This document shows positions 11,394 through 63,408 of a stretch of 64,000 nt of DNA, one piece after another. Position 1 is the stretch's first letter; each line of letters starts with the position of its first letter. This DNA comes from Eledone cirrhosa (taxonomy: Eukaryota): assembly GCA_964016885.1 (NCBI GenBank), contig OZ024741.1, positions 38,626,001-38,690,000 on the forward strand, written 5' to 3'. Made by a program: the position numbers and the translations under genes. The notes beneath the pieces were generated by a model that had not been told where the DNA came from, searched no databases, and saw only the letters and a program-made list of their open reading frames with translations.

Positions 11394-11624
11394 GTCTAGA
11401 TGATTAAATTGAACATTAATTGTATTAAATCAATTAGTCTAGGAATTGTTTCAACGATTACGGGCATCGTCTCTTCTTCTCTAATATTAAAGAAACATAT
11501 TTACATTTCATGGTTCTAATTTACAGCTCATATTTAGAAAGAAATTTGTAAATATTACATTCAAAATTTCTTTATAATTGTCATGGATATACTCGAGATA
11601 CTTATCTAATATATATATATATAT

Positions 11625-12309
11625 AAATGATAAACGGAAAAAAATGAAATGAAATGAAATTTCCCACTCTTAGTACGGCTGTTACTTAAATATACGTATG
11701 TACACGTATGTACACGTACAAGTATGTACACGTGAATCCATACGACCATATATATATGTGTGCATGTATGTATATATATATACATACTAGTGTACGTCTG
11801 TATACATATATGTATGTACGTGTACATACTTATATTTAAGTAACAGCCGTACTAAGAGTGGGAAATGAAATTTCGTTTCATTTTTTTCCGTTTATCGTTT
11901 TCGGTGCACCCGGAGGATTAACCCACTCGATATGCAAATTGGCTACTCAGCCGTTAATATGCATAAGGTAAGTATATACGTTCAACATTCTGGCAGGAAG
12001 GTATACGTTGCTGACGATAGCTAATAAGCTTGAAACTAGTACAGCGTTCCTTTGTCAGTGTTGAACAAACGAGCAACAATGGTTGCTAGACACTACGGCT
12101 TAATACGGGATGTTTGTTTACAAACACACCGAGCATTATAATAAATGTTCGGTGAATCCATACGTACATATATATATGTGTGCATGTATGTATATATATA
12201 TCCATACTACTGTACGTCTGTATACATATATGTATGTACGTGTACATACTTATATTTAAATAACAGCCGTACTAAGAGTGGGAAATGAAATTTCGTTTCA
12301 TTTTTTTCC

Positions 12310-12314
<5 letters not shown>
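11625..12314 (+). mobile_element. ORF-less HHR-bearing family C: inverted arm plus ~1.4 tandem units of a 420-nt monomer
   Basis: GTGAATCCATACG at 11732 and 12152 (period 420); 11625-11715 is the inverted 3' segment; (TA)n both sides. Confidence 0.85.
12005..12047 (+). ncRNA. Type I hammerhead ribozyme, family C, intact core
   Basis: acgttg-CTGACGA-tAGCTaataAGCTt-GAAA-CTAG-TA-cagcgt: 6-bp stem I, palindromic helix III ACTAGT, GUA site; flanks ttcaaca..ctggca / tgtcag..tgttgaa extend stem I. Confidence 0.85.
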
Positions 12315-12394
<80 letters not shown>

Positions 12395-12714
12395 TGTATG
12401 CATATATGTATATATGTATGAATGTATATATATATATATATATGTGTGTATATATATTTATCTATGTATCCATGCATGTATGAATATATATATATATGTA
12501 TTATACATTCATCCATTAGAGAAATTTGTATAAACAAATTTGTATGAATATTTATAAAAGTAAGACATAAATGTATGTGTGTATGTAAGTACGTATGTCT
12601 ACTCAAAGATATACGTCTCCTGAAATACCGTTCAATGTAAAATTATTATCTGTGGTATATAGAAGAAGTGTACTATCAGATCAGGAATGCTTGAAGAAAA
12701 GTTTTGTGTGAACC

Positions 12715-14642: not shown

Positions 14643-15830
14643 ATCTTAAACAAAAAATCTGAGGCAATTTCGGCTTGTAAACATAAATTGCAAAAAACTT
14701 TCCTGTATTACAGCCCCACGTTATACCCTAACGGATAGTACGATCTACACGTGAATATTTTACGTCTTGATGTGGGAGCTAAGTATATGTTTTGTTTATT
14801 CCTTTACTTATTTGCATAGGTAAGTATATATTACCCGTATGTTTTGTGAAGGTATGTATACCTTCTCGCACGTATATTTGATTGTTTTGGCGTATAATTT
14901 TATATATTCTGGTACATATGGTTTGGCTATGTGTATACGGGAGTTTTTGCGTCTGTGTGAGTATGCAGGTTCGTACGTATGGTGGGTGTGTGTATATGTG
15001 TACTTCTTGTTTTAATTGACTTATGTCTCCGAACATTCGCGTATTTATATGTAGGTATGTGTGTGGGCTTGTTGTATACGTATTTATTTATTTATATACG
15101 TTTATATAATTACTTATTTATTTGTATACACGTATACACACACACACATATTTATATGTGCGTGGTTTTGTATACCTATGGTAAGGTTTTGCGTATGCTT
15201 GTGTATGTACGTATTTGTTTGCGTGTATGTATTTATTTATTTCTATTACTTCTGTATTGTATTTATTTAATTTGTTCTTAACTCTGTAGCGGAGATTCAT
15301 TCGGTCTCCTAGTTAGAATTTTAGTCTACGACTTCTGCTATACCATTTACGTGGTTTTGTCTTTGCGTGCTATTGTTCTCCACGCTCCACATATGACGTA
15401 TTATTTTCGTTTTTTCGTTCATTGCCACAGAACGTCTCTATGCACCACCTCAGAGAACATTAGTCTACGACCTCTTTTATACCATAAACGTGGTTCTGTC
15501 TTTGCGCGTAATTGTTTTTCACCACTCCTATTAATGACGTATTATTCGTTTTTTCCCGTTCTTTGCCAGCGAACGTTTCCACGAACCAAAGTATCGTCTT
15601 CCTGTCTACCTCCGATTGCAGCGTTTTTTGAAATATCCAGTTCTGCGTTTACAGATTGACTTTGTTAGTTTCAGAAGATCCCGTTAAGGGTGAAAGCAGC
15701 GATTCTTTGCTTAAACTTTAATCTGTTATTTTAATAAATATTTGCTCTACGGTTCTCATATATTTGATATATATTTATCCTTACCGAGCCCTCTTTGGAT
15801 TTTAGTCTTCAAATTTATTATTATTACTAT
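14643..15830 (+). mobile_element. PLE family A (Naiad-like) 3' fragment (solo pLTR)
   Basis: Near-identical to 21535-22630; ends ATTATTATTACTAT into (TA)n. Confidence 0.9.
15651..15726 (+). ncRNA. Variant hammerhead motif of PLE family A (CAGAAGA core)
   Basis: acagattga..agttt-CAGAAGA-tCCCgttaaGGGt-GAAA-GCAgcgattcttTGC-TT-aaact-ttaatctgt. Confidence 0.7.
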
Positions 15831-15865
15831 ATATATATATATATATGTATGTATCTATATATATG

Positions 15866-15964
<99 letters not shown>

Positions 15965-15966
15965 TG

Positions 15967-16050
<84 letters not shown>

Positions 16051-16289
16051 CATATATATATTGTGGCTGCTAACTCGTTTTCGAGTACGGCCACTACTTT
16101 ATATCCATGTAGGAGAACCTTCTACCGATGCGCTGAACGAGTGTGACTTTTTAGTCCAGCCAGCGACTTGAAAACTCTGGTACAAACACTACACTTGTGA
16201 CAATTACTGACACATAGTGCTGGCCCCATGGTACCATGTGACGACAAGTGCAGAGAGATCTCCAGATATAGAGCAATGCCTGTGCCGTG

Positions 16290-16462
16290 AAGCTTTTATA
16301 GTGAGCAAAGGCACTGCACAAAGCCAGTCCCACTCTCTTAACCAAGATGATATTTACCAAAAAGAAGAACAAGTCAACATCATTGGATACCATCAGGGTT
16401 GTAGGTGGTATATCAGAGTTTTCCTTCTCCTAGAATTCTGCCTTGACAAAGGCTAAGGGGTC
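16290..16462. repeat. Dispersed repeat related to 50260-50440
   Basis: Shared CCCACTCTCT..AAAAGAAGAA..TCAACATC..GAGTT..CCTTCTCCTAGAA..TGCC.TGACAAA.GCTA. Confidence 0.55.
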
Positions 16463-16542
16463 ATCTCTCATATATATATCTATATACATACATAAATATA
16501 CATACATATATATACATACATTTATATTTATATATATGTATG

Positions 16543-16694
<152 letters not shown>

Positions 16695-16867
16695 GAGAGT
16701 GAGAGAGAGAGAGGAGAGTTAGAGAGAGAAATATATTTGTGTGTGTAATACCTTGTTTATGGCTCATAACATAGTGGTTCGTCACACAGGCACCGAGAAA
16801 ATAACTAATGGGGTCGATGTGATTGACTAAATACTTTCGCGAAATTTTCCTCTGAACCTAACTAATA

Positions 16868-17134
16868 ATTGTTCGTGGAAACCACCGCATATTCGCGGAA
16901 ACGTAAATATCTTCTGCAATTTTGTTATGGCTTTTTTCGTGACAATATATATGTTTTAACGCTTTTTAACGCTAAATTATTAATAACAATATACTGTACT
17001 TACCGGCCTATATTTTAAGTCAGGAATAGACGTTTATAGTAGGCATTTTTATGGGGCACGTCCAATGTTCGCGGTTTTTCACTCTTCACGGGTGCTCTAA
17101 GAAAGTAACCTCCGCGAATACCGGGGAACAACTG
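16868..17134. mobile_element. pogo/Tigger-like DNA transposon remnant
   Basis: Right end CCGCGAATACCGGGGAACAACTG|TA; internal TATTCGCGG match at 16892. Confidence 0.4.
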
Positions 17135-17179
17135 TATACACAGGTTATTTTATTATACTTCATTTCCAGCTTCATTTCC

Positions 17180-17312
17180 TGCCGAGCTTAACTTTGCCTT
17201 TCATCCTTACGGGGTCGATAAAATAAAGTACCAGTAATGCACTGGTGTTGATTTAATCGACTTTTCCCTCCTCTTTCAAATTGCTGGTTTTGTATCTAAA
17301 GTAGAAACAATT
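17180..17312 (+). mobile_element. SINE, 5'-truncated
   Basis: Family body sequence. Confidence 0.75.
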
Positions 17313-17619
17313 AGTTTATTATATTATTTATACTTTATTAACTATATTTTACAAAAAAAGTAGTTATACAATAATGGAAATATGGAAAGGACAGATAAAA
17401 GATAAAAACAAAATTAAGTAATGAAAAGATTTGGGGGGGGGAGTAAAGAAAGGCACAATCTGGCTGTATAGGCAAGTAGAGGAAAGGACTACAAATTCCA
17501 GAAACGAGAGGAAAGGATAGTAAAAGCAAGGATATTGGGGCCACGGAAGAAAGGGACAGGGGAAGTGTGATAGGCTATTGGGCGGGGAGGTGTTTCGGCT
17601 GCGCCACACGGACGAAACT

Positions 17620-17810
17620 GCAAAGGCATTTCAAGAGACAATGGCCAGCAACACCCGCTGCAACAGCCACCCCACCTCGCGGGGCTCCTTCCCCAGATAG
17701 GCTGTTGACGTTCCGATTTTACGGAGGAACTTGGTAGTACGGGGTTCGAGGACACATGTGGTCTCGACGTGTTCCAGCCGATAGGCTGAGGCAATGCTGG
17801 GGCGCCGCCA
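17620..17810 (-). pseudogene. CRE-clade non-LTR retrotransposon C-terminal fragment
   Basis: VETTCVLEPRTTKFLRKIG...EPREVGWLLQRVLLAIV; homologous to the 51674 and 57161 fragments. Confidence 0.65.
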
Positions 17811-17820
17811 TTGATATATA

Positions 17821-17874
<54 letters not shown>

Positions 17875-17972
17875 ATAATAATAAATTTGAAGACTAAAAT
17901 CCAAAGATGGCTCGATAAGGATAAATATATATCAAATATATAAGAACCGTAGAGCAAATATTTATTAAGATA

Positions 17973-18048
17973 ACAGATTAAAGTTTAAGCAAAGAATCGC
18001 TGCTTTCACCCTTAACGGGATCTTCTGAAACTAACAAAGTCAATCTGT
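17973..18048 (-). ncRNA. Variant hammerhead motif, PLE family A
   Basis: Reverse complement of 15651-15726. Confidence 0.7.
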
Positions 18049-18962
18049 AAACGCAGAACTGGATAATTCAAAAAACGTTGCAACCGGAGGAAGACAGGAA
18101 GACGATACTTTGGTTCGTGGAAACGTTCGCTGGCGAAGATCGGGAAAAAACGAATAATACGTCATTAATAGGAGCGGTGAAAAACAATTACGCGCAAAGA
18201 CAGAACCACGTTTATGGTATAAAAGAGGTCATAGACTAATGTTCTCTTAGGTGGGGCATAGAGACGTTCTCTAGCAATGAACGAAAAAACGAAGATAATA
18301 CGTCATATGTGGAGCGTGAAGAACAATAGCACGCAAAGACACAACCACGTAAATGGTATAGCAGAAGTCGTAGACTAAAATTCTAACTAGGAGACCAAAT
18401 GAATCTCCGCTACAGAGTTAAGAACAAAGTAAATAAATACAATACAGAAGTAATAGAAATAAATAAATACATACACGCAAACAAATACGTACATACACAA
18501 GCATACGCAAAAACTTACCATAGGTATACAAAACCACGCACATATAAATATGTGTGTGTGTGTATGCGTGTATACAAATAAATAAATAATTATATAAACG
18601 TATATAAATAAATAAATACGTATATAACAAGCGCACACACATACCTACATATAAATACACGAATGTTCGGAGACGTAAGTCAACTAAAACATGAAGTCCG
18701 CATATACACACACCCACCATACGTACGAACCTGCATACTCACACAGACGCAAAACTCCTGTATACACATAGCCAAACCATATGTACCAGAATATATAAAA
18801 TTATACTCCAAAACAATCAAATATACGTACGAGAAGGTATACGTACCTTCACAAAACATACGGGTAATATATACTTACCTATGCAAATAAGTAAAGGAAT
18901 AAATAAAACATATACTTAGCTCCCACATCAAGACGTAAAATATCCACGTATAGATCGTACTA

Positions 18963-19470
18963 TCCGTTAGGGTATAACGTGGGGCTGTAATACAGGAAAG
19001 TTTTGTGCAATTTATGTTTACAAGCCGAAATTGCCTCAGATTTCTTGTTTAAGATGTGGTCTATGGCGTAGAGTATTTCCAGGGCCTCAGCGGCGCAGAG
19101 GTCACATGGTCTTTTCTTTTCGACTTCAGATATAAGCTGAAAGTGACGTCATATTCCTTCTTAGAGGGTAACGAAAAGAATGGGTATGCATGTAAAGACG
19201 CTGCTTGAAACTATTGGCGGTTAACCCTATGTAGGCCCTACGGGACGTGGGTGTTACAACCTTACATTTGTAGACAATGTTACTAGAGAGGCATTTCCCG
19301 GATAGGGGGCAATCAGCCCGATTCCTACAATTACAGTTAGTACTAACTACAGGGTTGCACGTGTTCCTACGGCTAGGTAGTTTAGCTAAAGTTGAAGCTG
19401 TGATGTTATGTGCAAGGTTAGGAGTCGTAGAGTAAGAAATTTTAATAGTATTTTTATTAAAAATTTTACT
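18963..19470 (-). pseudogene. Disrupted GIY-YIG domain of the main family A copy
   Basis: Compared with 21085-21630: TGG>TGA and a ~65-nt deletion (equivalent to 21411-21475) at AAAGA microhomology near 19115. Confidence 0.85.
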
Positions 19471-21023
19471 GTTTTATGTGTAGGGGGAAAATGCTTCGTA
19501 ATAAGGGAAAGAAAGAACTTAGCTAAAGGTGTGGCCATCTCCATATTATATGGTGGGTTATACCAACAAATGCGACGGGATCTATTTCTTCTAGGTCTAT
19601 TTTCGTACTCTGTATATGCTACCTTTTCGACAAATCCACTTCGAGCAAGAGCTTCATTGTAATAAGTGGAATGGTCGTTGAAAATACGCTCGTTGGTGGA
19701 AAGACGGGAAAGCCTCAACGAAGCGTTTCTTACCAGGTTCTTGGTTATGCTGGCAGGATGGTTGGAATGCTTACTTATGTAATTAAGCGTGTCATTCGGC
19801 TTTCTATACGGGTAATACAACCCATTCAACAAATTGAGGGTAACGTCGAGGTAATTAACGACCGAGAGATTGGCCTCAACCTGTATAGAGAGGTTGAAGC
19901 CTTTAAAGAAGGCTGTGAGTTCTTTTCTGAACCTATCGAAAGCACGAGGTCCGCACTTAGTCATGGTCAGAAGACCATCGTCACGGTACAAACCACCGCC
20001 CGCGTTGGGGAATTCGTCCTTGATGGAGAAAAGAAGGAAAAGGCCAATAAGATCAGTAACCTCCGCAGAGTCACTGGCGCCCATACTCACGTCGAATGGG
20101 GTACTATTGGATTTTTTAATCCAAATAGAGTCGTCGAAATTAATCACCGACTTTCGGGCATTGAGGATGACATCAACTTCGAAGTCTTTAACCACTGTGA
20201 GTGTTTTAGCGAAATTGATAGCTCTAAGGAGAAGTGGTAAAGTGATGGAGGAGTAGTAATTGTTGATGTCGAATTGGATAAAACGGCAATGTTCCTTGTT
20301 ACATATGCCGTTGAACCAATCAATCACCGCGAAGGAATTGTTCCACAGTGCAAGAGGGGCCACACTTCTAATTTCAGGTATAATTCTATCAAGAATCGTT
20401 TTACTAAGTCTACCTAAATCGGACTTCGTAGGGTTAATAAGCCGAATAGATGGGTTGTTCTGAAAATTGGATTTGTGATCCTTCAGGGTAAAGTGGGGAG
20501 AAATAGGGTCCAGAGGTTCGGTCCGGTCCAGGATGTTGAGATCAGATGTGATTTTAAACCCAGCATCGTTGATTTCATTGATGACGCACCGATTAGTTTT
20601 ACGGTAATCCTTAGTTACAGCATTATGTAGTAGTTGATGGTAAGTACTGCGCTCCACTTGATATAGGTTGCCAGTTTTGTCGGAATGGACGTGCACGGCG
20701 TTAGCATCCTTAATAGAACGAATTCTATTCTTCAGGTCTTGCTGGAAGGAATTGCTCCTATTCCGAAATTTGATACTCCGAATGAGTTCCAAGACATCAT
20801 TTTCGAAGGGTAGCAGTGCTGGGTTCCTCGGGGGGTTATTATAGGTTTTAAATCCAAATTTATCCTGTTTGTTGTCTGCTTTTCGCGGATTATCGAAATA
20901 AAAGGCACGCCAACGCAACCTTTTAATCAACGCATCTGTTTTCTGTATCAGGAGTTTTAGGTATGTTTTCCTGCTTGGTACGGGTATGTTCTTTGTAGAA
21001 ATATTCAGTTGTTGTTTCTGCAT
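19386..21023 (-). CDS. PLE reverse transcriptase (Naiad-like), frameshifted near 19470 before the GIY-YIG domain
   Basis: STKNIPVPS..LIKRLRWRAF, HSDKTGNLY, TLKDHK..RLINP.KSDLG, FIQFDINNYYSSI, FDVSMGASDSAE, GLYRDDGL, YLDVTL, HSNHP. Confidence 0.9.
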   Translation of the reverse strand: MQKQQLNISTKNIPVPSRKTYLKLLIQKTDALIKRLRWRAFYFDNPRKADNKQDKFGFKTYNNPPRNPALLPFENDVLELIRSIKFRNRSNSFQQDLKNRIRSIKDANAVHVHSDKTGNLYQVERSTYHQLLHNAVTKDYRKTNRCVINEINDAGFKITSDLNILDRTEPLDPISPHFTLKDHKSNFQNNPSIRLINPTKSDLGRLSKTILDRIIPEIRSVAPLALWNNSFAVIDWFNGICNKEHCRFIQFDINNYYSSITLPLLLRAINFAKTLTVVKDFEVDVILNARKSVINFDDSIWIKKSNSTPFDVSMGASDSAEVTDLIGLFLLFSIKDEFPNAGGGLYRDDGLLTMTKCGPRAFDRFRKELTAFFKGFNLSIQVEANLSVVNYLDVTLNLLNGLYYPYRKPNDTLNYISKHSNHPASITKNLVRNASLRLSRLSTNERIFNDHSTYYNEALARSGFVEKVAYTEYENRPRRNRSRRICWYNPPYNMEMATPLAKFFLSLITKHFPPTHKTVKFLIKILLKFLTLRLLTLHITSQLQL

Positions 21024-21084
21024 AATGAATATAAGTCAGTAGAGTGCTCAACCGAGGGAGCCAAATAGTAATAATAATATTAAA

Positions 21085-21630
21085 ATGTCTTACTCTACGA
21101 CTCCTAACCTTGCACATAACATCACAGCTTCAACTTTAGCTAAACTACCTAGCCGTAGGAACACGTGCAACCCTGTAGTTAGTACTAACTGTAATTGTAG
21201 GAATCGGGCTGATTGCCCCCTATCCGGGAAATGCCTCTCTAGTAACATTGTCTACAAATGTAAGGTTGTAACACCCACGTCCCGTAGGGCCTACATAGGG
21301 TTAACCGCCAATAGTTTCAAGCAGCGTCTTTACATGCATACCCATTCTTTTCGTTACCCTCTAAGAAGGAATATGACGTCACTTTCAGCTTATATCTGGA
21401 GTCTAAAAGACAACCACACCCAATATAAGTTACACTGGGAGATCCTAGCTAGGGCTAGATCGTATAACGGAAATAAAAGACCATGCGACCTCTGCGCTGC
21501 TGAGGCCCTGGAAATACTCTACGCCATAGACCACATCTTAAACAAAAAATCTGAGGCAATTTCGGCTTGTAAACATAAATTGCACAAAACTTTCCTGTAT
21601 TACAGCCCCACGTTATACCCTAACGGATAG
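21085..21630 (+). CDS. Intact PLE GIY-YIG endonuclease domain in the inverted arm
   Basis: CNCRNRADCPLSGKCL, NIVYKCKV..AYIGLT..FKQRLYMH, CDLC..E..I, LNKKSE..CKH. Confidence 0.85.
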   Translation: MSYSTTPNLAHNITASTLAKLPSRRNTCNPVVSTNCNCRNRADCPLSGKCLSSNIVYKCKVVTPTSRRAYIGLTANSFKQRLYMHTHSFRYPLRRNMTSLSAYIWSLKDNHTQYKLHWEILARARSYNGNKRPCDLCAAEALEILYAIDHILNKKSEAISACKHKLHKTFLYYSPTLYPNG

Positions 21631-22541
21631 TAAGATCTATACGTGGATATTTTACGTCTTGATGTGGGAGCTAAGTATATGTTTTGTTTATTCCTTTACT
21701 TATTTGCATAGGTAAGTATATATTACCCGTATGTTTTGTGAAGGTACGTATACCTTCTCGTACGTATATTTGATTGTTATGGCGTATACTTTTATATATT
21801 CTGGTACATATGGTTTGGCTATGTGTATACGGGAGTTTTGCGTCTGTGTGAGTATGCAGGTTCGTACGTATGGTGGGTGTGTGTATATGCGTACTTCATG
21901 TTTTAGTTGACTTACGTCTCCGAACATTCGTGTATTTATATGTAGGTATGTGTGTGCGCTTGTTATATACGTATTTATTTATTTATATACGTTTATATAA
22001 TTATTTATTTATTTGTATACACGCATACACACACACACATATTTATATGTGCGTGGTTTTGTATACCTATGGTAAGTTTTTGCGTATGCTTGTGTATGTA
22101 CGTATTTGTTTGCGTGTATGTATTTATTTATTTCTATTACTTCTGTATTGTATTTATTTACTTTGTTCTTAACTCTGTAGCGGAGATTCATTTGGTCTCC
22201 TAGTTAGAATTTTAGTCTACGACTTCTGCTATACCATTTACGTGGTTGTGTCTTTGCGTGCTATTGTTCTCCACGCTCCACATATGACGTATTATCTTCG
22301 TTTTTTCGTTCATTGCCAGAGAACGTCTCTATGCCCCACCTAAGAGAACATTAGTCTATGACCTCTTTTATACCATAAACGTGGTTCTGTCTTTGCGCGT
22401 AATTGTTTTTCACCGCTCCTATTAATGACGTATTATTCGTTCTTTCCCGTTCTTTGCCAGCGAACGTTTCCACGAACCAAAGTATCGTCTTCCTGTCTTC
22501 CTCCGGTTGCAACGTTTTTTGAAATATCCAGTTCTGCGTTT

Positions 22542-22617
22542 ACAGATTGACTTTGTTAGTTTCAGAAGATCCCGTTAAGGGTGAAAGCAGCGATTCTTTG
22601 CTTAAACTTTAATCTGT
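22542..22617 (+). ncRNA. Variant hammerhead motif, PLE family A
   Basis: Same sequence as 15651-15726. Confidence 0.7.
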
Positions 22618-22781
22618 TATTTTAATAAATATATATTTATATATATATATATTAATAAAAGAAATTCCAACTTTGTCTGATTTACACGTAAATTTACACG
22701 AGTTAGTTGGAATTCCTTTTATTAATATAATCTTCTATACACAATCATACACACCCGTGTATATCTATTATCTATCTATCC

Positions 22782-26189: not shown

Positions 26190-29105
26190 TATAAGAAGTT
26201 GGGACAGTGAAATTAAAATACAAGTCATTCTGATCACATTGAGTTCTTCATGTAGATTGGGCCCCGCAACCGACAGTGGTGAATTCTGTGTGCGCATATA
26301 TATATATAGATATATGTGTGTGCACGTGCAGGGTTTAACATGGATGTGTTGGTCACACAAAGGCATGGTCTGTCAACGAATAAACCTGATTCTACAGAAT
26401 TGGTCTCTGGTCTTTAATAGTAGTGATTCCGTGCGTATGTGTGTTTATATTTTATGACAATTCTATTGGGGTGATAACCCGTTTAGTTTTGGTTTAAATT
26501 TGTTAAGGAATAGATTTTCTTTGTTTATTCTTTGTTGCTGTGTGAACGAATCTGAGCACTTGTAGAAGGGGAAGATTTTAAAGTTGGGTAGTGTCATTCC
26601 TGCGCAGTTCGCAATATGGCTGCTCAAGGGGATTTTTCTTGTGTTAGCGTCCCGGATTTGTTGGCAGTGGATGGTCATTCTTTTGCGTAATGAGGTGCCC
26701 GTCTGTCCAATGTAGTTGTGTTTGCACCCACCGCAAGTTATTGCGTAAATCAAGTTCTCCGAGTTGCAGGTGAAATTGTTTTTTACTGTAAATGTTTGGC
26801 CATCTTTGAATGTAAATGTTTGTCCTTCAGTGAGGTAGAGGCACGTTCCACAGTTTGTTCTACCACATTTGGTAACTGTAGGGTTGAGGATTGGTTTGGG
26901 TATATTTGGTCCAGTGAGAATGCGTTTAAGTGATTTGGGTTGTCTTTTACTTTTAAGGATCTTGTGTGTTTCAAGAATAGACTTCATTTTTACATCTTTA
27001 AGTAGGATGGGGAGGTTTTTGTGTAGGTGATCAAACATTTCGGTATTTCTGGGGTTGAAAGTGGATACATATGGCAGGGTGTTGAGTGTGGTTTTCTGTT
27101 TTGGATTGTTAAGTTGATGGGGATTTAGGTGTTTTGCCCTGTCTATTCCATTGTTGATTATTTCAAGTGGAAAGGCTCTTAAGATAAGGGTGTCTTTTAG
27201 TTCCTTTAGTCTTTGCTCCCGTTTAGGTGGATCTGATACTATGGTACATATACGTTTGGCCAAATTGTAAGGAATGTTAAGTTTTTTATGTTTTGGGTGA
27301 CTTGATGTGAAAAAGAGGTATTGCTTGGAATCTGTGGATTTATAGAATATATCTGTATCTAATTTCCCGTCTATTACAGAGATGAGAATATCCAAGAAGG
27401 CTAATTCCTTATGATTGGATTCCATTGTGAATTGTATGTTATTATCTATGTTGTTTATCATGTTTTTAAACGTAGTAAGTGAGTTCATGTCTTCTTGCCA
27501 TAGGATAAAGCAGTCGTCTAGATATCTTTTCCAATTGGCTTTGAGGTGTGTGTGGAAAGAGTCTCCAAATAAGAGAAGGGACTGACTGTATATTTGTTGT
27601 TCATGGAATCCCATAACTAGGTTGGCATATGTGGGTGCTACTTTCGTGCCCATTGCCGTACCTGATACTTGTCTGTATGTTGAACCATTGAATGTGAAGT
27701 AGTTATTTTGTAGGATAAAGCGGAGTCCGTCAGTGATAAAATCTGTGTTGATGCGTGTCGGTATTTCTGATGGGTGTGTGTTAAGCCAGTATTGGACTGC
27801 TGTTATTCCATAGTTGTGAGGTATGTTTGTGTAGAGGTTTATTACGTCAAAGGAGACAAGAATTGTATTTGCACTTACTGTTTTAGGGAGGTGTTTCAAC
27901 ATGTCAAGGTCATCTCGTATGTAGCTCTGTATATGTTGTAGAAAGGGTTTCAGTAGGATGTCCAGAAAGTTGCTAAGTCTGTGGGTTTCACATGTAGGGC
28001 CTGCTATAATTGGCCTGAGTTTTAGGTCTTCTGGTGGTGTTAGTTCAATGTAATTGTTGGTTGAGGTGTCACATGCATCGTTTATGGGTTTACATTTGTG
28101 GAGTTTCGGTAAGCCGTAAAAAGAGCTTGTATTGCATTTGAAGTGGCTTATATAGTTAAACTCTTTTGTGGTTAAGCTGTTGCGGTATTTATTCAGTAAG
28201 GTCAAAAGGTTCCCCATTGTTTTGGTGTGTTTGTAGTTTTCTGTTTTTTCATAGTATGTGTTGTTTTCTAAAATGTTAAGTGCGAGGGTCCTATAGTAGT
28301 CCGTATTCATAATGACAACAGTACTGCCTTTATCGGCTTCTTTGATAGTTATCTCAGGGTTGTTTCTAAGTGTGAATAATTCTTCCCATTCGTGTGTAGA
28401 TAGGTTTGATTTCGTGTGTTTATTTGTAATTTTTTCATAGGGAAAGTTGGTGATGTGTTCGCAGTACGTGTCCAGTGCTTTATTTCTTCCCTTTTGTGGG
28501 CAGAAATTGCTTTTATTTCTAACCAGTGATTCGTCTTCAGTGTTGGTGTCGTTGTGAAAGAATTCCGTTAGTCGCAGCATTCGGCAGTATTCCATGATGT
28601 CATCCTTCATTTCGGGGAAGTTTGGTTTACGTGGTGTAGGTGTAAATTTCAGGCCCTTACTTAAAATGTTGATTTGTGTGTTGGTTAGAGGTGTCTTTGA
28701 GAGGTTGATTATTTTTGGTTTCTCCTGAGGGGGGGCCATCGAGTATCCTGGTATTTCAGGCTTTTCCCTAAAAAAGGAATGTAGTTTTGTGTGTGATTAT
28801 ATTTTGTTGGTCTGTTGCGTGTGGGTCTGTAGCTTGTTGTTTCATGAGGGTGAATGTGATGGTGGGGGTGGTATGTGTTGTGGTTGTTGATGAGCAAGAG
28901 TTCTGTTGTTGGTTCATGTGGTCTGGGTGCGTTATTTCTGTGGTACAGAGTGTTGAGGTTGGGGGGTTGTCTTTTGTTGGATTGAGGGTGATGTCTGGTG
29001 TGGTTGTGGGTAAGTTCTGTTGTGATTTCAAGTGGTCTGGGTGGATTTCTTCTGAGGAATGTGGTGTGTGTGTTGTGAGTTGGATCTATGTTATTTCGTC
29101 GTTGG
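26190..29105 (-). mobile_element. Neptune-like PLE including UTRs
   Basis: ORF plus flanks; 3' UTR 26220-26295 is homologous to 63870-63935; boundaries approximate. Confidence 0.75.
26463..28739 (-). CDS. Intact PLE polyprotein (RT + Zn-knuckle + GIY-YIG), Neptune-like
   Basis: IINLS..LSKGLKFTPTP, IKEADKG, FYGLPKLHK, LRPII, SFDVINLYTNIP, GTAMGTKVAPTYANL, WKRYLDD, FLDI, SSHP, CGRTNCGTC, NLIYAITC..C..YIGQT..LRKR. Confidence 0.95.
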   Translation of the reverse strand: MAPPQEKPKIINLSKTPLTNTQINILSKGLKFTPTPRKPNFPEMKDDIMEYCRMLRLTEFFHNDTNTEDESLVRNKSNFCPQKGRNKALDTYCEHITNFPYEKITNKHTKSNLSTHEWEELFTLRNNPEITIKEADKGSTVVIMNTDYYRTLALNILENNTYYEKTENYKHTKTMGNLLTLLNKYRNSLTTKEFNYISHFKCNTSSFYGLPKLHKCKPINDACDTSTNNYIELTPPEDLKLRPIIAGPTCETHRLSNFLDILLKPFLQHIQSYIRDDLDMLKHLPKTVSANTILVSFDVINLYTNIPHNYGITAVQYWLNTHPSEIPTRINTDFITDGLRFILQNNYFTFNGSTYRQVSGTAMGTKVAPTYANLVMGFHEQQIYSQSLLLFGDSFHTHLKANWKRYLDDCFILWQEDMNSLTTFKNMINNIDNNIQFTMESNHKELAFLDILISVIDGKLDTDIFYKSTDSKQYLFFTSSHPKHKKLNIPYNLAKRICTIVSDPPKREQRLKELKDTLILRAFPLEIINNGIDRAKHLNPHQLNNPKQKTTLNTLPYVSTFNPRNTEMFDHLHKNLPILLKDVKMKSILETHKILKSKRQPKSLKRILTGPNIPKPILNPTVTKCGRTNCGTCLYLTEGQTFTFKDGQTFTVKNNFTCNSENLIYAITCGGCKHNYIGQTGTSLRKRMTIHCQQIRDANTRKIPLSSHIANCAGMTLPNFKIFPFYKCSDSFTQQQRINKENLFLNKFKPKLNGLSPQ

Positions 29106-43114: not shown

Positions 43115-43406
43115 TAACACATGCGCAAACTAAGCACACAACACACACAAAAACAAGATGGCGTAGGACAGAACAAAAGAGAGACACAAAAACAAAGGAA
43201 AGAATCCCCAGTCACTGAAGAGGTCACAGAATGTGTGACGAAAGAACTTTGACAATATATAAACAATCATCTGGTTGTGGAACCAACCAACCAACCAACC
43301 AACCGGAAATTTATAAATTCCTAAATTTATAAATTTATTATAATAAATTGAAGTGAAACTACTGGTGCGTGTGTTTCTTATTGGCAACATGACCCTCCCA
43401 AAGTAT

Positions 43407-46530: not shown

Positions 46531-46879
46531 GTATATACTTTCCTTATGCATATTAACGGCTGAGCAGCTTAATTTGCATATCGAGTGAGTTAATCGGCCG
46601 GGTGCACCGAACACGATAAACGGAAAAAATGAAACGAATTTTCATTTTTCACTCTTAGTACGGCTGTTACTTAAATATAAGTATGTATACGTACATACAC
46701 ATATGTATACAGACGTACCGTAGTATGTATATATATATACATGCACACATATATACATGTACGTATGTATCACCGAACATTTATTATAATGCTCGGTGTG
46801 TTTGTAAACAAACATCCCGAATTAAGCCGTACAGTGTCTAGCAACTATCGTTGCTCATTTGTTCAACACTGACAAAGGA

Positions 46880-46922
46880 ACGCTGTACTAGTTTCAAGCT
46901 TATTAGCTATCGTCAGCAACGT
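46880..46922 (-). ncRNA. Type I hammerhead ribozyme, family C, intact
   Basis: Reverse complement of 12005-12047. Confidence 0.85.
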
Positions 46923-47373
46923 ATACTTTCCTGCCAGATGGTTGAAAGTCTGAAAGTATATACTTTCCTTGTGCATATTAACGGCTAAGCAGCCTAATTT
47001 GCATATCGAGTGAGTTAATCGGCCGGGTGCACCGAAAACGATAAACGGAAAAAATGTAACGCAATTTCATTTCTCACTCTTAGTACGGCTGTTACTTGAA
47101 TATAAGTACATGTATACATGTGTGCATGTATGTATATATATATACATACTACTGTACGTCTGTATATATATATGCATGTACGTATACATACTTATATTTA
47201 AGTAACAGCAGTACTAAGAGTGAGAAATGAAATTTCGTTTCATTTTTTCCGTTTATCGTTTTCGGTACCCCGGCCGATTAACTCACTCGATATGCAAATT
47301 AGGCTGCTCAGTTGTTAATACGCATAAGGAAAGTATATACTTTCAGACGTTCAACCATCTGGCAGGAAGGTAT

Positions 47374-47416
47374 ACGTTTCTGACGGTAGGTAATAAGCTT
47401 GAACCTAGTACAGCGT
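47374..47416 (+). ncRNA. Family C hammerhead, inactivated core
   Basis: CTGACGG and GAAC substitutions. Confidence 0.6.
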
Positions 47417-47619
47417 TCCTTTGTCAGTGTTGAACAAACGAGAAACGATGGTTGCTAGACACTGTACGGCTTAATTCGGGATGTTTGTTTACAAACACAC
47501 CGAGCATTATAATAAATGTTCGGTGAATCCATACGTACATGTATATATGTGTGCATGTATGTATATATATATACATACTACTGTACGTCTGTATACATAT
47601 ATGTATGTACGTATACATA

Positions 47620-47717
<98 letters not shown>

Positions 47718-47877
47718 TATATTTACATACACATATATATATATACATATATATATATACACACACACACATATATCTATATCAGAAAGAATCTTGCTAA
47801 ACAAATTCAGAAACGATATATATATATATATATATATATAATTATATACATATATATAACTGTATCCATTTAAATCC

Positions 47878-47966
<89 letters not shown>

Positions 47967-47995
47967 TAGATATATATACACACATATATATATAT

Positions 47996-48048
<53 letters not shown>

Positions 48049-48084
48049 CATGTATATATACATGTATATATACATATATATATA

Positions 48085-48585
48085 TGAATGTATGTATAGT
48101 ATATTTGGTAATATACCGTATGTTTAATTAAAAACATTTTGAAGACCTTGCGCCATTATTTTAAAGTAGTGATTAAGTCACTTAATTCATAGTCACTACT
48201 TTAAAATAATAGCGCAAGGTTTTCAAAATATTTTTAATTAAACATACAGTATATTACCAAATATACTATACATACACATGTATACATCGGTATTTCAGAG
48301 CACCAATCCTAATTTTTTATTTTTGCTGGACCGGCAATCCCTCTGTATAATCAGTTCCTGATTATTACTGGAATTCTATAAGAATCCAGCCTTTATAATT
48401 TCCGGCATAGGTCGGCGAGTACGTTGTTCTGAGGAACACCAACAGTGTGAAACAGATCTGTCAGCTTCTCTCCCTTCCTTTGCTGAAAAAAGAAGTGACA
48501 TAGTCACTACTTTAAATAATAGCGCAAGGTCTTCAAAATGTTTAATTAAACATACAGTATATTACCAAATATATTATACATACAT

Positions 48586-48586
<1 letters not shown>
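48085..48586 (+). mobile_element. ORF-less HHR-bearing family E: inverted arm plus ~1.3 units of a 311-nt monomer
   Basis: CATAGTCACTACTTTAAA at 48188 and 48499; 48090-48175 inverted; (TA)n flanks. Confidence 0.85.
48426..48465 (+). ncRNA. Type I hammerhead ribozyme, family E, canonical core
   Basis: gtt-CTGAGGA-ACACcaacaGTGT-GAAA-CAGATCTG-TC-agc; palindromic helix III, GUC site. Confidence 0.85.
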
Positions 48587-48661
<75 letters not shown>

Positions 48662-52269: not shown

Positions 52270-52699
52270 AGTATAACTCAGATTACATTTATTGTATTCC
52301 GCCATGTAGAGCGAAATTTTCTTTTTTATTTGAATTTGACAAAGCCGGCCATTTATCGCTCGTATACAGGAAGCTGACTGGCCAGTCTGCTGATATGCAA
52401 ATCAGGCAGATCAGTCACTGTGTATTTTTGAAAATAGCATATATTTTCACTAGCTCTGACAGTTTGGCAGGTGAACAGTGAGCTGTACTGATGAAGGGTG
52501 ATACCCAGAAACATCAGTGTCTGCAGTTCTGTTTACATGCCAACACAAGAGCAATAATGAAGTGTTCATTCTAGTGACATGGCTATAAAATTGAAGGTTG
52601 TTTGCATAATTGCAAACGAATCGAATGTTATTATTAAAATTCGAAAAACTCAGATTACATTTATTGTATTCAGCCATGTAGAGCGAAATTTTCTTTTTT
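52270..52699 (+). mobile_element. ORF-less HHR-bearing family D: ~1.15 units of a ~371-nt monomer
   Basis: ACTCAGATTACATTTATTGTATTC..GCCATGTAGAGCGAAATTTTC at 52277 and 52648. Confidence 0.85.
52481..52528 (+). ncRNA. Type I hammerhead ribozyme, family D
   Basis: agctgta-CTGATGA-aGGGtgataCCCa-GAAA-CAtcagTG-TC-tgcagtt; stem I extends with gtgaacag/ctgtttac. Confidence 0.85.
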
Positions 52700-59504: not shown

Positions 59505-59531
59505 CTGATGAAGGGCTTATGCCGAAACGTC
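59505..59531 (+). ncRNA. PLE-type minimal hammerhead motif
   Basis: CTGATGA-agGGCttatGCC-GAAA-CG-TC; stem I weak. Confidence 0.6.
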
Positions 59532-59782: not shown

Positions 59783-60917
59783 TAATTTTGCGAGGTTATT
59801 GATATGAAATCGTGTGTCGAAACAAATATTGTTATACTTGGGGAGGATCATATTTGTGTAATAATATTGCCAGAATTAATAACAGAACACACTCACTGTT
59901 TGGTTGATTTTCGCTTCTGTGTCTTTCATATCGGTTAATTTAATTTATTCGGTCCTCAATGTTACCATTGACTGACCAACAGTCAAAGATACAGATATAA
60001 TATAGACACAAACACATATATATAGTCTAACAAAGTCCTTTCGTTGCACATCTGCAACATCGTCAGTGGTGCTATTATGTTTCCTCCTGTTGTATTGTAT
60101 GCCTACGCCATCTTTATTTAGTCTGTTTTTTAATTAATTAATTTATTTTTTGTCTTCTCTGCGCATGCGTTTGCGTGTGTGTATAGTGTTTGATGTGTGT
60201 TCGTGTTTGGGTGACTGTGTATTGGTTATTATATTCTATCTTAGTTTACTAGTGTGTGTTTATATGTGTTTGTTGTTATTGTGCTTGTGTATGTATTTAT
60301 TTATTTATTTATTTATACCTCTCTTAGGTCAGTATTGCTTGTTTGGGTGTTGTTGTTATTCCATTCATTTTTTCTGTTTAGCCTTGGCCTTCTAAGTTCT
60401 ATTTCTCTGGCCCCTCTGATTTGCCTATCTGCTGGGTAATTCCTATGTTTAGATATTATTCTAATTGTTATGTTGTCTATGTTACTGGCATGTTACTGGC
60501 ATGTCTATGTTTAGATATTATTCTAATTTCTATGTTGTCTATGTTACTGGCATGTTCTATAGTACTGGCATGTTACTGGCATGTTCTATAGTACTAGCAT
60601 GTTCACTATACGAACATGCCAGACAACAACACGACGGCAACATAGACAACATAGAAATTAGAATAATATCTAAACATAGAAATGACCCAGCAGATAAGCA
60701 AATCAGAGAGGCCAGCGAAATAGAACTTAGAAGGCCAAGGCTAAACAGAAAAAATGAATGGAATAACAACAACACCAGTCAATGGTAACATTGAGGACCG
60801 AATAAATTAAATTAACTGATATAAAAGACACAGAAGCGAAAAACCAACCAAACAGTGAGTGTGTTCTGTTATTAATTCTGGCAATATTATTAAACAAATA
60901 TGACCCTCCCCAAGTAT

Positions 60918-61202: not shown

Positions 61203-61373
61203 AAACGAAGGAAGTGTGGTAAGGAACCAGATGGACCATAACGCACCAGAGTACTCAATACTTAGGGTAGTAGAGTGGGTAATAGGAAAATGTATAACCC
61301 CGACGGCAGAGCTCAAGCCGTTTCGACGGCTATTTCTGGTCCCGAAATAGCAGTCAAAACGGCTTGAGCTCTG
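61203..61373 (-). mobile_element. Family J copy with a distinct fold-back junction
   Basis: Homologous to 54765-54900; loop ..CTATTTCTGGTCCCGAAATAG.. Confidence 0.75.
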
Positions 61374-61674
61374 TATATGTGAATGTATGTATAATATATT
61401 AGGCAATATACCGTATGTTTAATTTAAAATATTTAGAAGACCATACGCTATCAGTTTTAAAGTAGTGACTATGTCACTTACTTCTTTTCAGCGAAGGAAG
61501 GGAGAGAAGCTGACAGTCTGTTTCACACTGATTGGCGATCATCAGAGCAACGTACTCCCTTCCCTTCGCCGAAAATTATCGAAGCTGGGTTCTTATAATC
61601 AGGAGGTGATTATACAGAGCGATTACTGGTCCTGCAAAAATTAGGCATTATGATTGGTGCTCTGAAATAGCGAT

Positions 61675-61678
<4 letters not shown>
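61373..61678 (-). mobile_element. Family E, about one monomer
   Basis: Reverse-complement homolog of 48280-48586. Confidence 0.8.
61509..61548 (-). ncRNA. Family E hammerhead
   Basis: gct-CTGATGA-tCGCcaatcaGTGt-GAAA-CAGaCTG-TC-agc. Confidence 0.75.
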
Positions 61679-61741
<63 letters not shown>

Positions 61742-62638: not shown

Positions 62639-62689
62639 AGATTCTACAGGACTAGAACTGTTTCATTCTTTAGAAATCATCAGGAATCT
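62639..62689 (-). ncRNA. Family G hammerhead
   Basis: Reverse complement of 63358-63408. Confidence 0.8.
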
Positions 62690-63357: not shown

Positions 63358-63408
63358 AGATTCCTGATGATTTCTAAAGAATGAAACAGTTCTAGTCCTG
63401 TAGAATCT
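63358..63408 (+). ncRNA. Family G hammerhead
   Basis: agattc-CTGATGA-tTTCtaaaGAAt-GAAA-CAGttctagtcCTG-TA-gaatct; 6-bp stem I, 4-bp helix III, GUA site. Confidence 0.8.

Follow-up and report, generated by a model that had tools for sequence, protein, structure and literature searches.

Hammerhead ribozyme repeats with the insertion footprint of Penelope-like elements in the genome of Eledone cirrhosa

Family E of Eledone cirrhosa is a dispersed, non-coding and non-autonomous repeat family which, judged by its sequence, works like a metazoan non-LTR retrozyme. It is described here from two copies in the window, a 64,000-nucleotide stretch of DNA rich in microsatellites around them, and from insertions sampled across the 3.0 Gb assembly. 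A type I hammerhead ribozyme is predicted in each E unit. The insertions combine two 3′ ends and a tail with inverted truncated arms, partial tandems and a (TA)n target, features that correspond to the footprint of Penelope-like elements (PLEs). It is quite probable that the family spread as an RNA circle, carried into (TA)n by the reverse transcriptase-endonuclease of a PLE. The route of animal retrozymes into new sites, and the enzyme that mobilises them, are left as proposals in passages of PMC7229834 and bioRxiv 10.64898/2026.07.22.740005. With the E lineage and its sister family Y, insertion by a PLE from a circular template would have a footprint in genomic sequence and be open to direct test.

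Copies of family E in the window

The copy at 48084-48589 consists of a 5′-truncated inverted arm on the minus strand (48084-48188, about monomer positions 203-308) and a forward arm of 1.3 units on the plus strand (48188-48589, from monomer position 214 round to about 308), each ending in (TA)n at an end site termed A. The right target tract is (TA)n (48590-48657); the left one, rich in (TA)n (47558-48083), is common to an adjoining hammerhead repeat at 46531-47759. Sequence and BLAST bear out the layout given in the initial annotation, namely (TA)n, an inverted arm, 1.3 units and (TA)n. The 311-nt monomer reported there agrees with the repeat spacing in the forward arm by both approaches, but the family unit measures 316-318 nt, the shorter spacing being due to small deletions in this copy. 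An internal copy of end site A and a second end site, B, with a tail of about 27 nt between them, lies at 48277-48313 (+) and is matched by loose ends at 48276 and 48313, which run into (TA)n. On the model set out in parts of PMC11167929, A and B at this place are likely to correspond to start sites of reverse transcription. Three runs (kind unspecified) contain family E; all come from one sample and are not independent support.

The second copy, at 61372-61681 (-), is a single arm of 1.0 unit with a 14-nt deletion and is 81% identical to the first. It belongs to another subfamily, with a CUGAUGA core and a 7-nt helix III cap, and the difference between CUGAGGA and CUGAUGA is one between subfamilies. 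It had been described as a diverged unit near 61373-61678 with core and stems retained; the hammerhead is indeed present (61509-61548, -), whereas the first helix II pair is U-U. The strands of its outer stem (61492-61509/61556-61575) pair more fully than in relatives, as would be the case had one of them served as template for its partner. The forward arm of the first copy likewise carries a single hammerhead, so no circle could come from that copy alone. Both window copies are likely dead ends, and the one at 48084-48589 is in itself an ordinary decayed member of the family.

The family unit and its surroundings

A first look at the genome gives 3,054 candidates for the E unit. The 3′ half of the ribozyme has 767 exact matches and a 3′-proximal 30-mer has 4,374 with at most one mismatch, the reversed-pattern control being 0 in both cases. 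The sample consists of 180 loci mapped on a tandem consensus (60 best, 30 by ribozyme pattern, 85 by 3′ motif and 5 paired); removal of 12 duplicate loci and of segments below 76% identity or 40 nt left 278 segments in 182 insertions. The monomer is closed, that is, the previous unit stands upstream of each unit, and the longest run reaches 3.4 units (L071). Five subfamilies, E1a, E1b, E2a, E2b and E3, differ at core position 7, position 17, the helix III cap and the stems. The consensus built from genomic copies, as had been proposed at the outset, does not run into coding PLE sequence, and no shared coding extension occurs among the 182 insertions. Together with a compensated ribozyme fold, the closed monomer and this want of an extension support the original description of a retrozyme-like family.

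The ends, tail and target of E are those of PLEs (passages of PMC8557442), and frog retrozymes resemble the pseudo-LTRs (pLTRs) of such elements according to parts of bioRxiv 10.64898/2026.07.22.740005. E copies might on these grounds be the 5′-truncated ends of an autonomous Penelope-like element, and one of them does stand 78 nt behind a decayed, C-rich PLE frame that has the same orientation (L020:1826-3229). We regard this origin as very improbable. Among the insertions sampled from the thousands of copies in the genome, a unit is preceded either by another unit or by unrelated sequence, and the upstream flanks of 103 single-arm insertions recur only within duplicated loci and in one pair. 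That pair (L151:1870-2592 and L177:1880-2356) is an older repeat that bears an 86-88-nt E 3′ end and tail at the same place; no frame is seen in its shared upstream part. The upstream DNA of 30 copies of the oldest subfamily gives a like picture. An open frame with reverse transcriptase and GIY-YIG endonuclease is absent from the E insertions sampled, and the PLE frames that lie near E copies occur sporadically, belong to several families and point in both directions. The arrangement at L020, a single case, was rejected as the parent element and is possibly a template switch.

The predicted hammerhead ribozyme

The canonical hammerhead reported at 48426-48465 (+) is confirmed as type I by a motif scan, and it is conserved across lineages. 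Helix I has 3 bp (48426-48428/48463-48465) and is followed by the core CUGAGGA (48429-48435), a helix II of 4 bp (48436-48448) and GAAA (48449-48452), giving the core pattern CUGAGGA/GAAA/UC. The helix III cap is palindromic and cleavage is predicted after C48462. An outer stem of 13 bp (48399-48411/48477-48489), in which the window copy has two private mismatches, lengthens helix I and bounds a ribozyme domain of 48399-48489 (+). The scan also returns four looser matches with long and weak helix II regions, and an Rfam scan of the window gives no match at the gathering score. Circular folds are more stable than shuffled sequences, with z values of -5.6 for E1, -8.5 for E2 and -4.6 for Y (60 shuffles). 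The ribozyme domain of the window copy alone is not (z -1.4), as fits the decay of this copy. Activity dependent on dimers had been predicted from the palindromic helix III, which turns out to be a minority form: among 100 listed of the 767 matches, 8 caps are palindromic, 60 have 7 nt and 31 have 9 nt, and the prediction would hold for that minority cap only.

Selection on the hammerhead appears as a clear signal between lineages. E2 and Y are identical at 208 of 316 positions overall, at 11 of 11 in the core and at 43 of 79 in the rest of the ribozyme domain. In an alignment of eight related sequences, from which the structure was itself drawn, 96% of the cells pair (41-50% in slid controls) and 9 of the 23 pairs have changed on both sides (0 of 500 shuffles); the test omits the first helix II pair, since in four of the eight rows its bases do not pair or are shifted in register. 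Of 155 E insertions, 16 combine U3 with A8, six have U3 alone and four A8 alone. The combination is probably the result of one event, and the pattern of the U3-A8 subfamily has 189 genome matches. U3-A8 is a known covariation of the hammerhead core (parts of PMC4209133).

Within copies the picture is not clear. Core and flanks change at equal rates in the largest subfamily, E2a (23/579 vs 534/13,785), and among the subfamilies 1.8-4.0% of core positions change vs 3.1-9.8% of non-CpG flanks, a weak test since 35 of the loci were chosen with a pattern in which some core positions are fixed. A core that decays as fast as its surroundings is expected of dead copies. The initial annotation had placed the ribozyme under selection from two copies, which alone could not show it, and had named equal rates in core and flanks as the contrary outcome. 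Equal rates are what the largest subfamily has, while between lineages the core is kept, and there the intact core, the compensated stems and the U3-A8 pair speak for selection.

Insertion anatomy

E copies show variable 5′ truncation, partial tandems and inverted arms, the last often head to head. On the 3′ side they terminate at either of two fixed sites, separated by about 27 nt, B being A plus a tail of 26-28 nt, and (TA)n follows. The 182 insertions include 64 simple head-to-head pairs, which comprise 45 with one arm ending at A and the other at B, three A+A, one B+B and 15 with one unclear end. A+B therefore accounts for 45 of the 49 resolved pairs, and the window copy, with both arms ending at A, is among the three of the rarer A+A pattern. 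Of the 103 single arms, 89 have A or B as their end. The two arms of an insertion agree at 466 of 522 subfamily-diagnostic sites vs 51% after permutation, and in all five subfamilies the repeats inside one insertion are closer to each other than copies of one subfamily are.

Arms in the unselected set number 43, 38, 30 and 2 per successive half unit; they rarely exceed 1.45 units, and stops become more frequent beyond one unit. Two hammerheads in one arm are found in 15 of the 182 insertions, in 1 of 86 unselected ones and in neither window copy, and in most Y insertions. Rare variants are shared between repeats in only two of eight E insertions with long or repeated arms. A cleaved linear monomer was considered as the template and rejected, the 5′ ends being without excess at the cleavage site in both families (E 10/232 vs 9.5 expected; Y 1/80). 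They are enriched along the 3′ strand of the long stem, in Y (15/80, 7.2 expected) as in E (36/232, 16.9 expected), an interval picked after looking at the data. Most junctions show an overlap of a few bases.

Sister family Y and the template

Family Y is very young, is 66% identical to E2, has a palindromic CGCG helix III cap and comprises more than 15,000 near-identical units. Pattern searches of the genome give 15,599 matches to its hammerhead, 17,717 to a second motif and 506 exact junctions of an A end with (TA)n. Locus L097 (4606-6406) contains 5.8 identical units of 310 nt and has the same end site as E. The Y set covers 50 regions (L250-L299), 40 of them picked by the A end, and amounts to 51 insertions once one twin beside an assembly gap is dropped. 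Forty-one have two arms; two of these have an end outside the fetched stretch, and all 39 resolved ones are A+B, as are 9 of the 9 two-arm insertions that were not picked by end pattern. The arms form mirror arrays and can exceed 25 units.

The two arms of a Y insertion prove to be of one haplotype in 36 of 36 cases open to the test (18 haplotypes, twin included), vs a mean of 5.9 and a maximum of 15 in 20,000 permutations. Variants present in every unit are mostly private, 12 of 19 being seen as such in one insertion only. Differences confined to a single unit number 76 in 131,176 bases, and 1 of 36 single-unit substitutions is common to both arms at the same template place. Unit-specific changes of a linear multimer would reach both arms, whereas a monomer circle would yield variants in every unit; the Y data accordingly fit a circle. 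Two Y insertions described below, L273 and L275, speak against it. For Y, rolling-circle copying is well supported. For E, to which the direct signs do not extend, it is inferred by homology. Editing from A to I, prompted by recurring A>G changes in Y, was rejected: minor alleles per site in E are 1.78 for A>G and 2.14 for T>C.

E could instead be a PLE derivative copied from linear, uncleaved transcripts of about two units from a few master loci, with the hammerhead serving RNA processing and no circle as template. E arms are indeed mostly shorter than 1.5 units, the PLE studied in vitro took uncleaved RNA and had no need of hammerhead cleavage (parts of PMC11167929), and in the Y insertion L273 one variant occupies the 3′-most unit of both arms and no other. 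However, about 18 of 232 E arms pass the second cleavage site, one of them reaching 3.4 units, the 5′ ends of E do not pile up at one template place, and in Y many rare variants fill all units of both arms while single-unit ones are almost never common to them. We consider copying from such linear transcripts unlikely, though it is the alternative to be taken most seriously.

The tandem and inverted forms might also have arisen after insertion, by slippage, unequal crossing-over and arm conversion at the DNA level, the hammerhead being a passenger. The setting is unstable and microsatellite-rich, the E2a core changes within copies at the rate of its flanks, and one Y array is a mosaic: in L275 an arm of 24 or more units has linked variants in scattered units, 5 and 4 out of 27. 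Yet the long arrays are nearly changeless, core and stems covary across lineages, and arms ending at two different fixed sites, one each, already largely refute such an origin, which is scarcely credible. Older, diverged Y copies, which would allow a test of collapse with age, are absent from 279 other sequences searched.

Proposed mechanism and helper enzyme

On the preferred reading, copying from a circle, a source with two hammerheads would be transcribed, cut to the monomer and ligated. A PLE protein would then cut both strands of (TA)n, and each cut strand would prime one cDNA, at two internal sites of one RNA. The cDNAs would roll round the circle before being joined head to head. In Y, long mirror arrays would result; in E the arms may have been short from the start or may have collapsed later, perfect palindromes being unstable when long.

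In vitro a purified PLE protein cleaves AT-rich DNA on both strands and extends each of them, and two internal start sites on the RNA bound the PLE tail (parts of PMC11167929). PLE insertions are characterised by partial tandems, by a 5′ copy in inverted orientation and by a tail on one of the ends; Naiads favour (TA)n (passages of PMC8557442 and PMC3846280). Retrozyme circles are described from coral, mussel and axolotl in parts of PMC7229834, where tandem cDNA made by PLEs on circular templates is proposed. A broader reading, whose truth and falsity we judge about evenly balanced, is that a long-lived lineage of ribozyme circles (E1-E3, Y and weaker relatives) evolves as replicators without a parent gene. 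Each insertion would record a single circle, round which a dimeric Penelope enzyme rolls for kilobases after priming from both cut strands at two fixed sites of that RNA, and E would be the eroded fossil of mirror arrays. The E and Y lineage also sets a constraint on the mechanism of PLEs, the two arms of one insertion coming from one RNA haplotype with one start site each. E adds evolutionary depth through its compensated stems and U3-A8 core, and shows what old insertions look like.

A search for a helper PLE whose ends match those of E gave none among 30 loci of the P0001 family and 30 GIY-YIG loci. These loci resemble E in target, in the logic of the tail and in hammerhead-like motifs with U3-A8, but their sequence matches to E are confined to nested copies and AT-rich noise. 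P0001 is a PLE frame of the window (26463-28796, -), 777 aa from stop to stop and 5′-truncated here, with a reverse transcriptase match and with zinc-finger and GIY-YIG-like motifs recognised by eye. It is putatively labelled Neptune after the description of motifs in a part of PMC8557442. Its 3′ UTR, which extends to about 25000, is long and microsatellite-rich; it contains a hammerhead-like motif of the U3-A8 kind and has two ends in (TA)n, separated by about 36 nt. The family is very young, with at least 58 near-intact matches and with members lying 0-0.51% from the consensus, and is a candidate helper by age and habit only. An older family of autonomous PLEs, to which part of L300-L327 belongs, has an optional tail and a hammerhead-like motif of the U3-A8 kind, placed about 200 nt upstream of the end in (TA)n.

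Relation to known systems

In its low-GC monomer of about 300 nt, tandem arrangement, single type I hammerhead per unit and lack of protein, E is like the metazoan non-LTR retrozymes presented in parts of PMC7229834. It differs from them, as described there, in that most E copies have only one hammerhead, and the insertions of E and Y show two end sites, a tail, inverted arms and (TA)n; the words ‘inverted’ and ‘microsatellite’ each occur 0 times in the main text of that paper. Cleavage and circles are demonstrated for those retrozymes, whereas E is known here from sequence alone. As far as the consulted parts of bioRxiv 10.64898/2026.07.22.740005 go, its conclusion is similar, retrozymes being PLE derivatives that depend on PLE enzymes and disperse as monomers. 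The argument there proceeds from co-occurrence in vertebrates and similarity to pLTRs, without insertion anatomy, and local tandem growth is assigned to unequal crossing-over, while the anatomy of E and Y points to arrays made at insertion. A pLTR similar to E was not found here, unlike in those vertebrates. One of nine dimers cleaved in vitro in that study, which counsels caution over the activity of E.

E resembles the endonuclease-bearing PLEs Neptune, Poseidon and Naiad in its 5′ truncation, its partial tandems, the 5′ copy in inverted orientation and the tail on one of the ends, and also in an AT-rich or (TA)n target and a hammerhead that includes the U3-A8 variant (passages of PMC8557442, PMC3846280, PMC4209133 and PMC11167929). 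Unlike these elements as described there, it has no reading frame, its tail is 26-28 rather than 30-40 nt long and its hammerhead is canonical with a long stem. The in vitro experiments reported in parts of PMC11167929 show no strand difference in the start site, whereas here there is one site per arm. A search of titles and abstracts, mostly outside subscription journals and with supplements aside, found no description of two-arm retrozyme arrays or of priming at one site per arm; material possibly relevant to this point includes the model figure S9 in PMC7229834, as well as supplements to PMC11167929 and bioRxiv 10.64898/2026.07.22.740005.

Family C and other hammerhead repeats

The initial annotation compared E with a ‘family C’, assumed here to be the repeat at 2653-2966, 11609-12414 and 46531-47759, which has a palindromic CUAG helix III and a unit of about 420 nt. 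Its copy at 46531-47759 adjoins the E copy in one (TA)n tract. No similarity between the two had been visible there, but the presumed family C matches the E/Y profile weakly (E 5.6e-4 in 1.3 Mb). In both copies tested the part 3′ of the ribozyme lies above all 100 shuffles, and the 5′ part of two copies tested has no match to E/Y. A remote common origin is possible. With this weak match and the 66% identity to the young family Y, calling E ‘independent’ was too strong.

Several other diverged families match the E/Y profile better than the presumed family C. Diverged hammerhead families with 3′ ends like those of E and Y are found at L187:1041-1281, L256:553-837, L297:118-343, L056:1813-1987, L162:83-245 and L197:52-222, and appear to make up a wider superfamily. 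A large tandem and inverted repeat structure at 14643-22632 of the window surrounds a 549-aa frame (19386-21035, -) that is PLE-like by eye and has no Pfam match. Hammerhead-like cores also occur in other repeats of the window, at 62661-62683 (-), 63364-63386 (+), 52488-52511 (+), 59505-59527 (+), 60039-60066 (-) and 43215-43243 (+).
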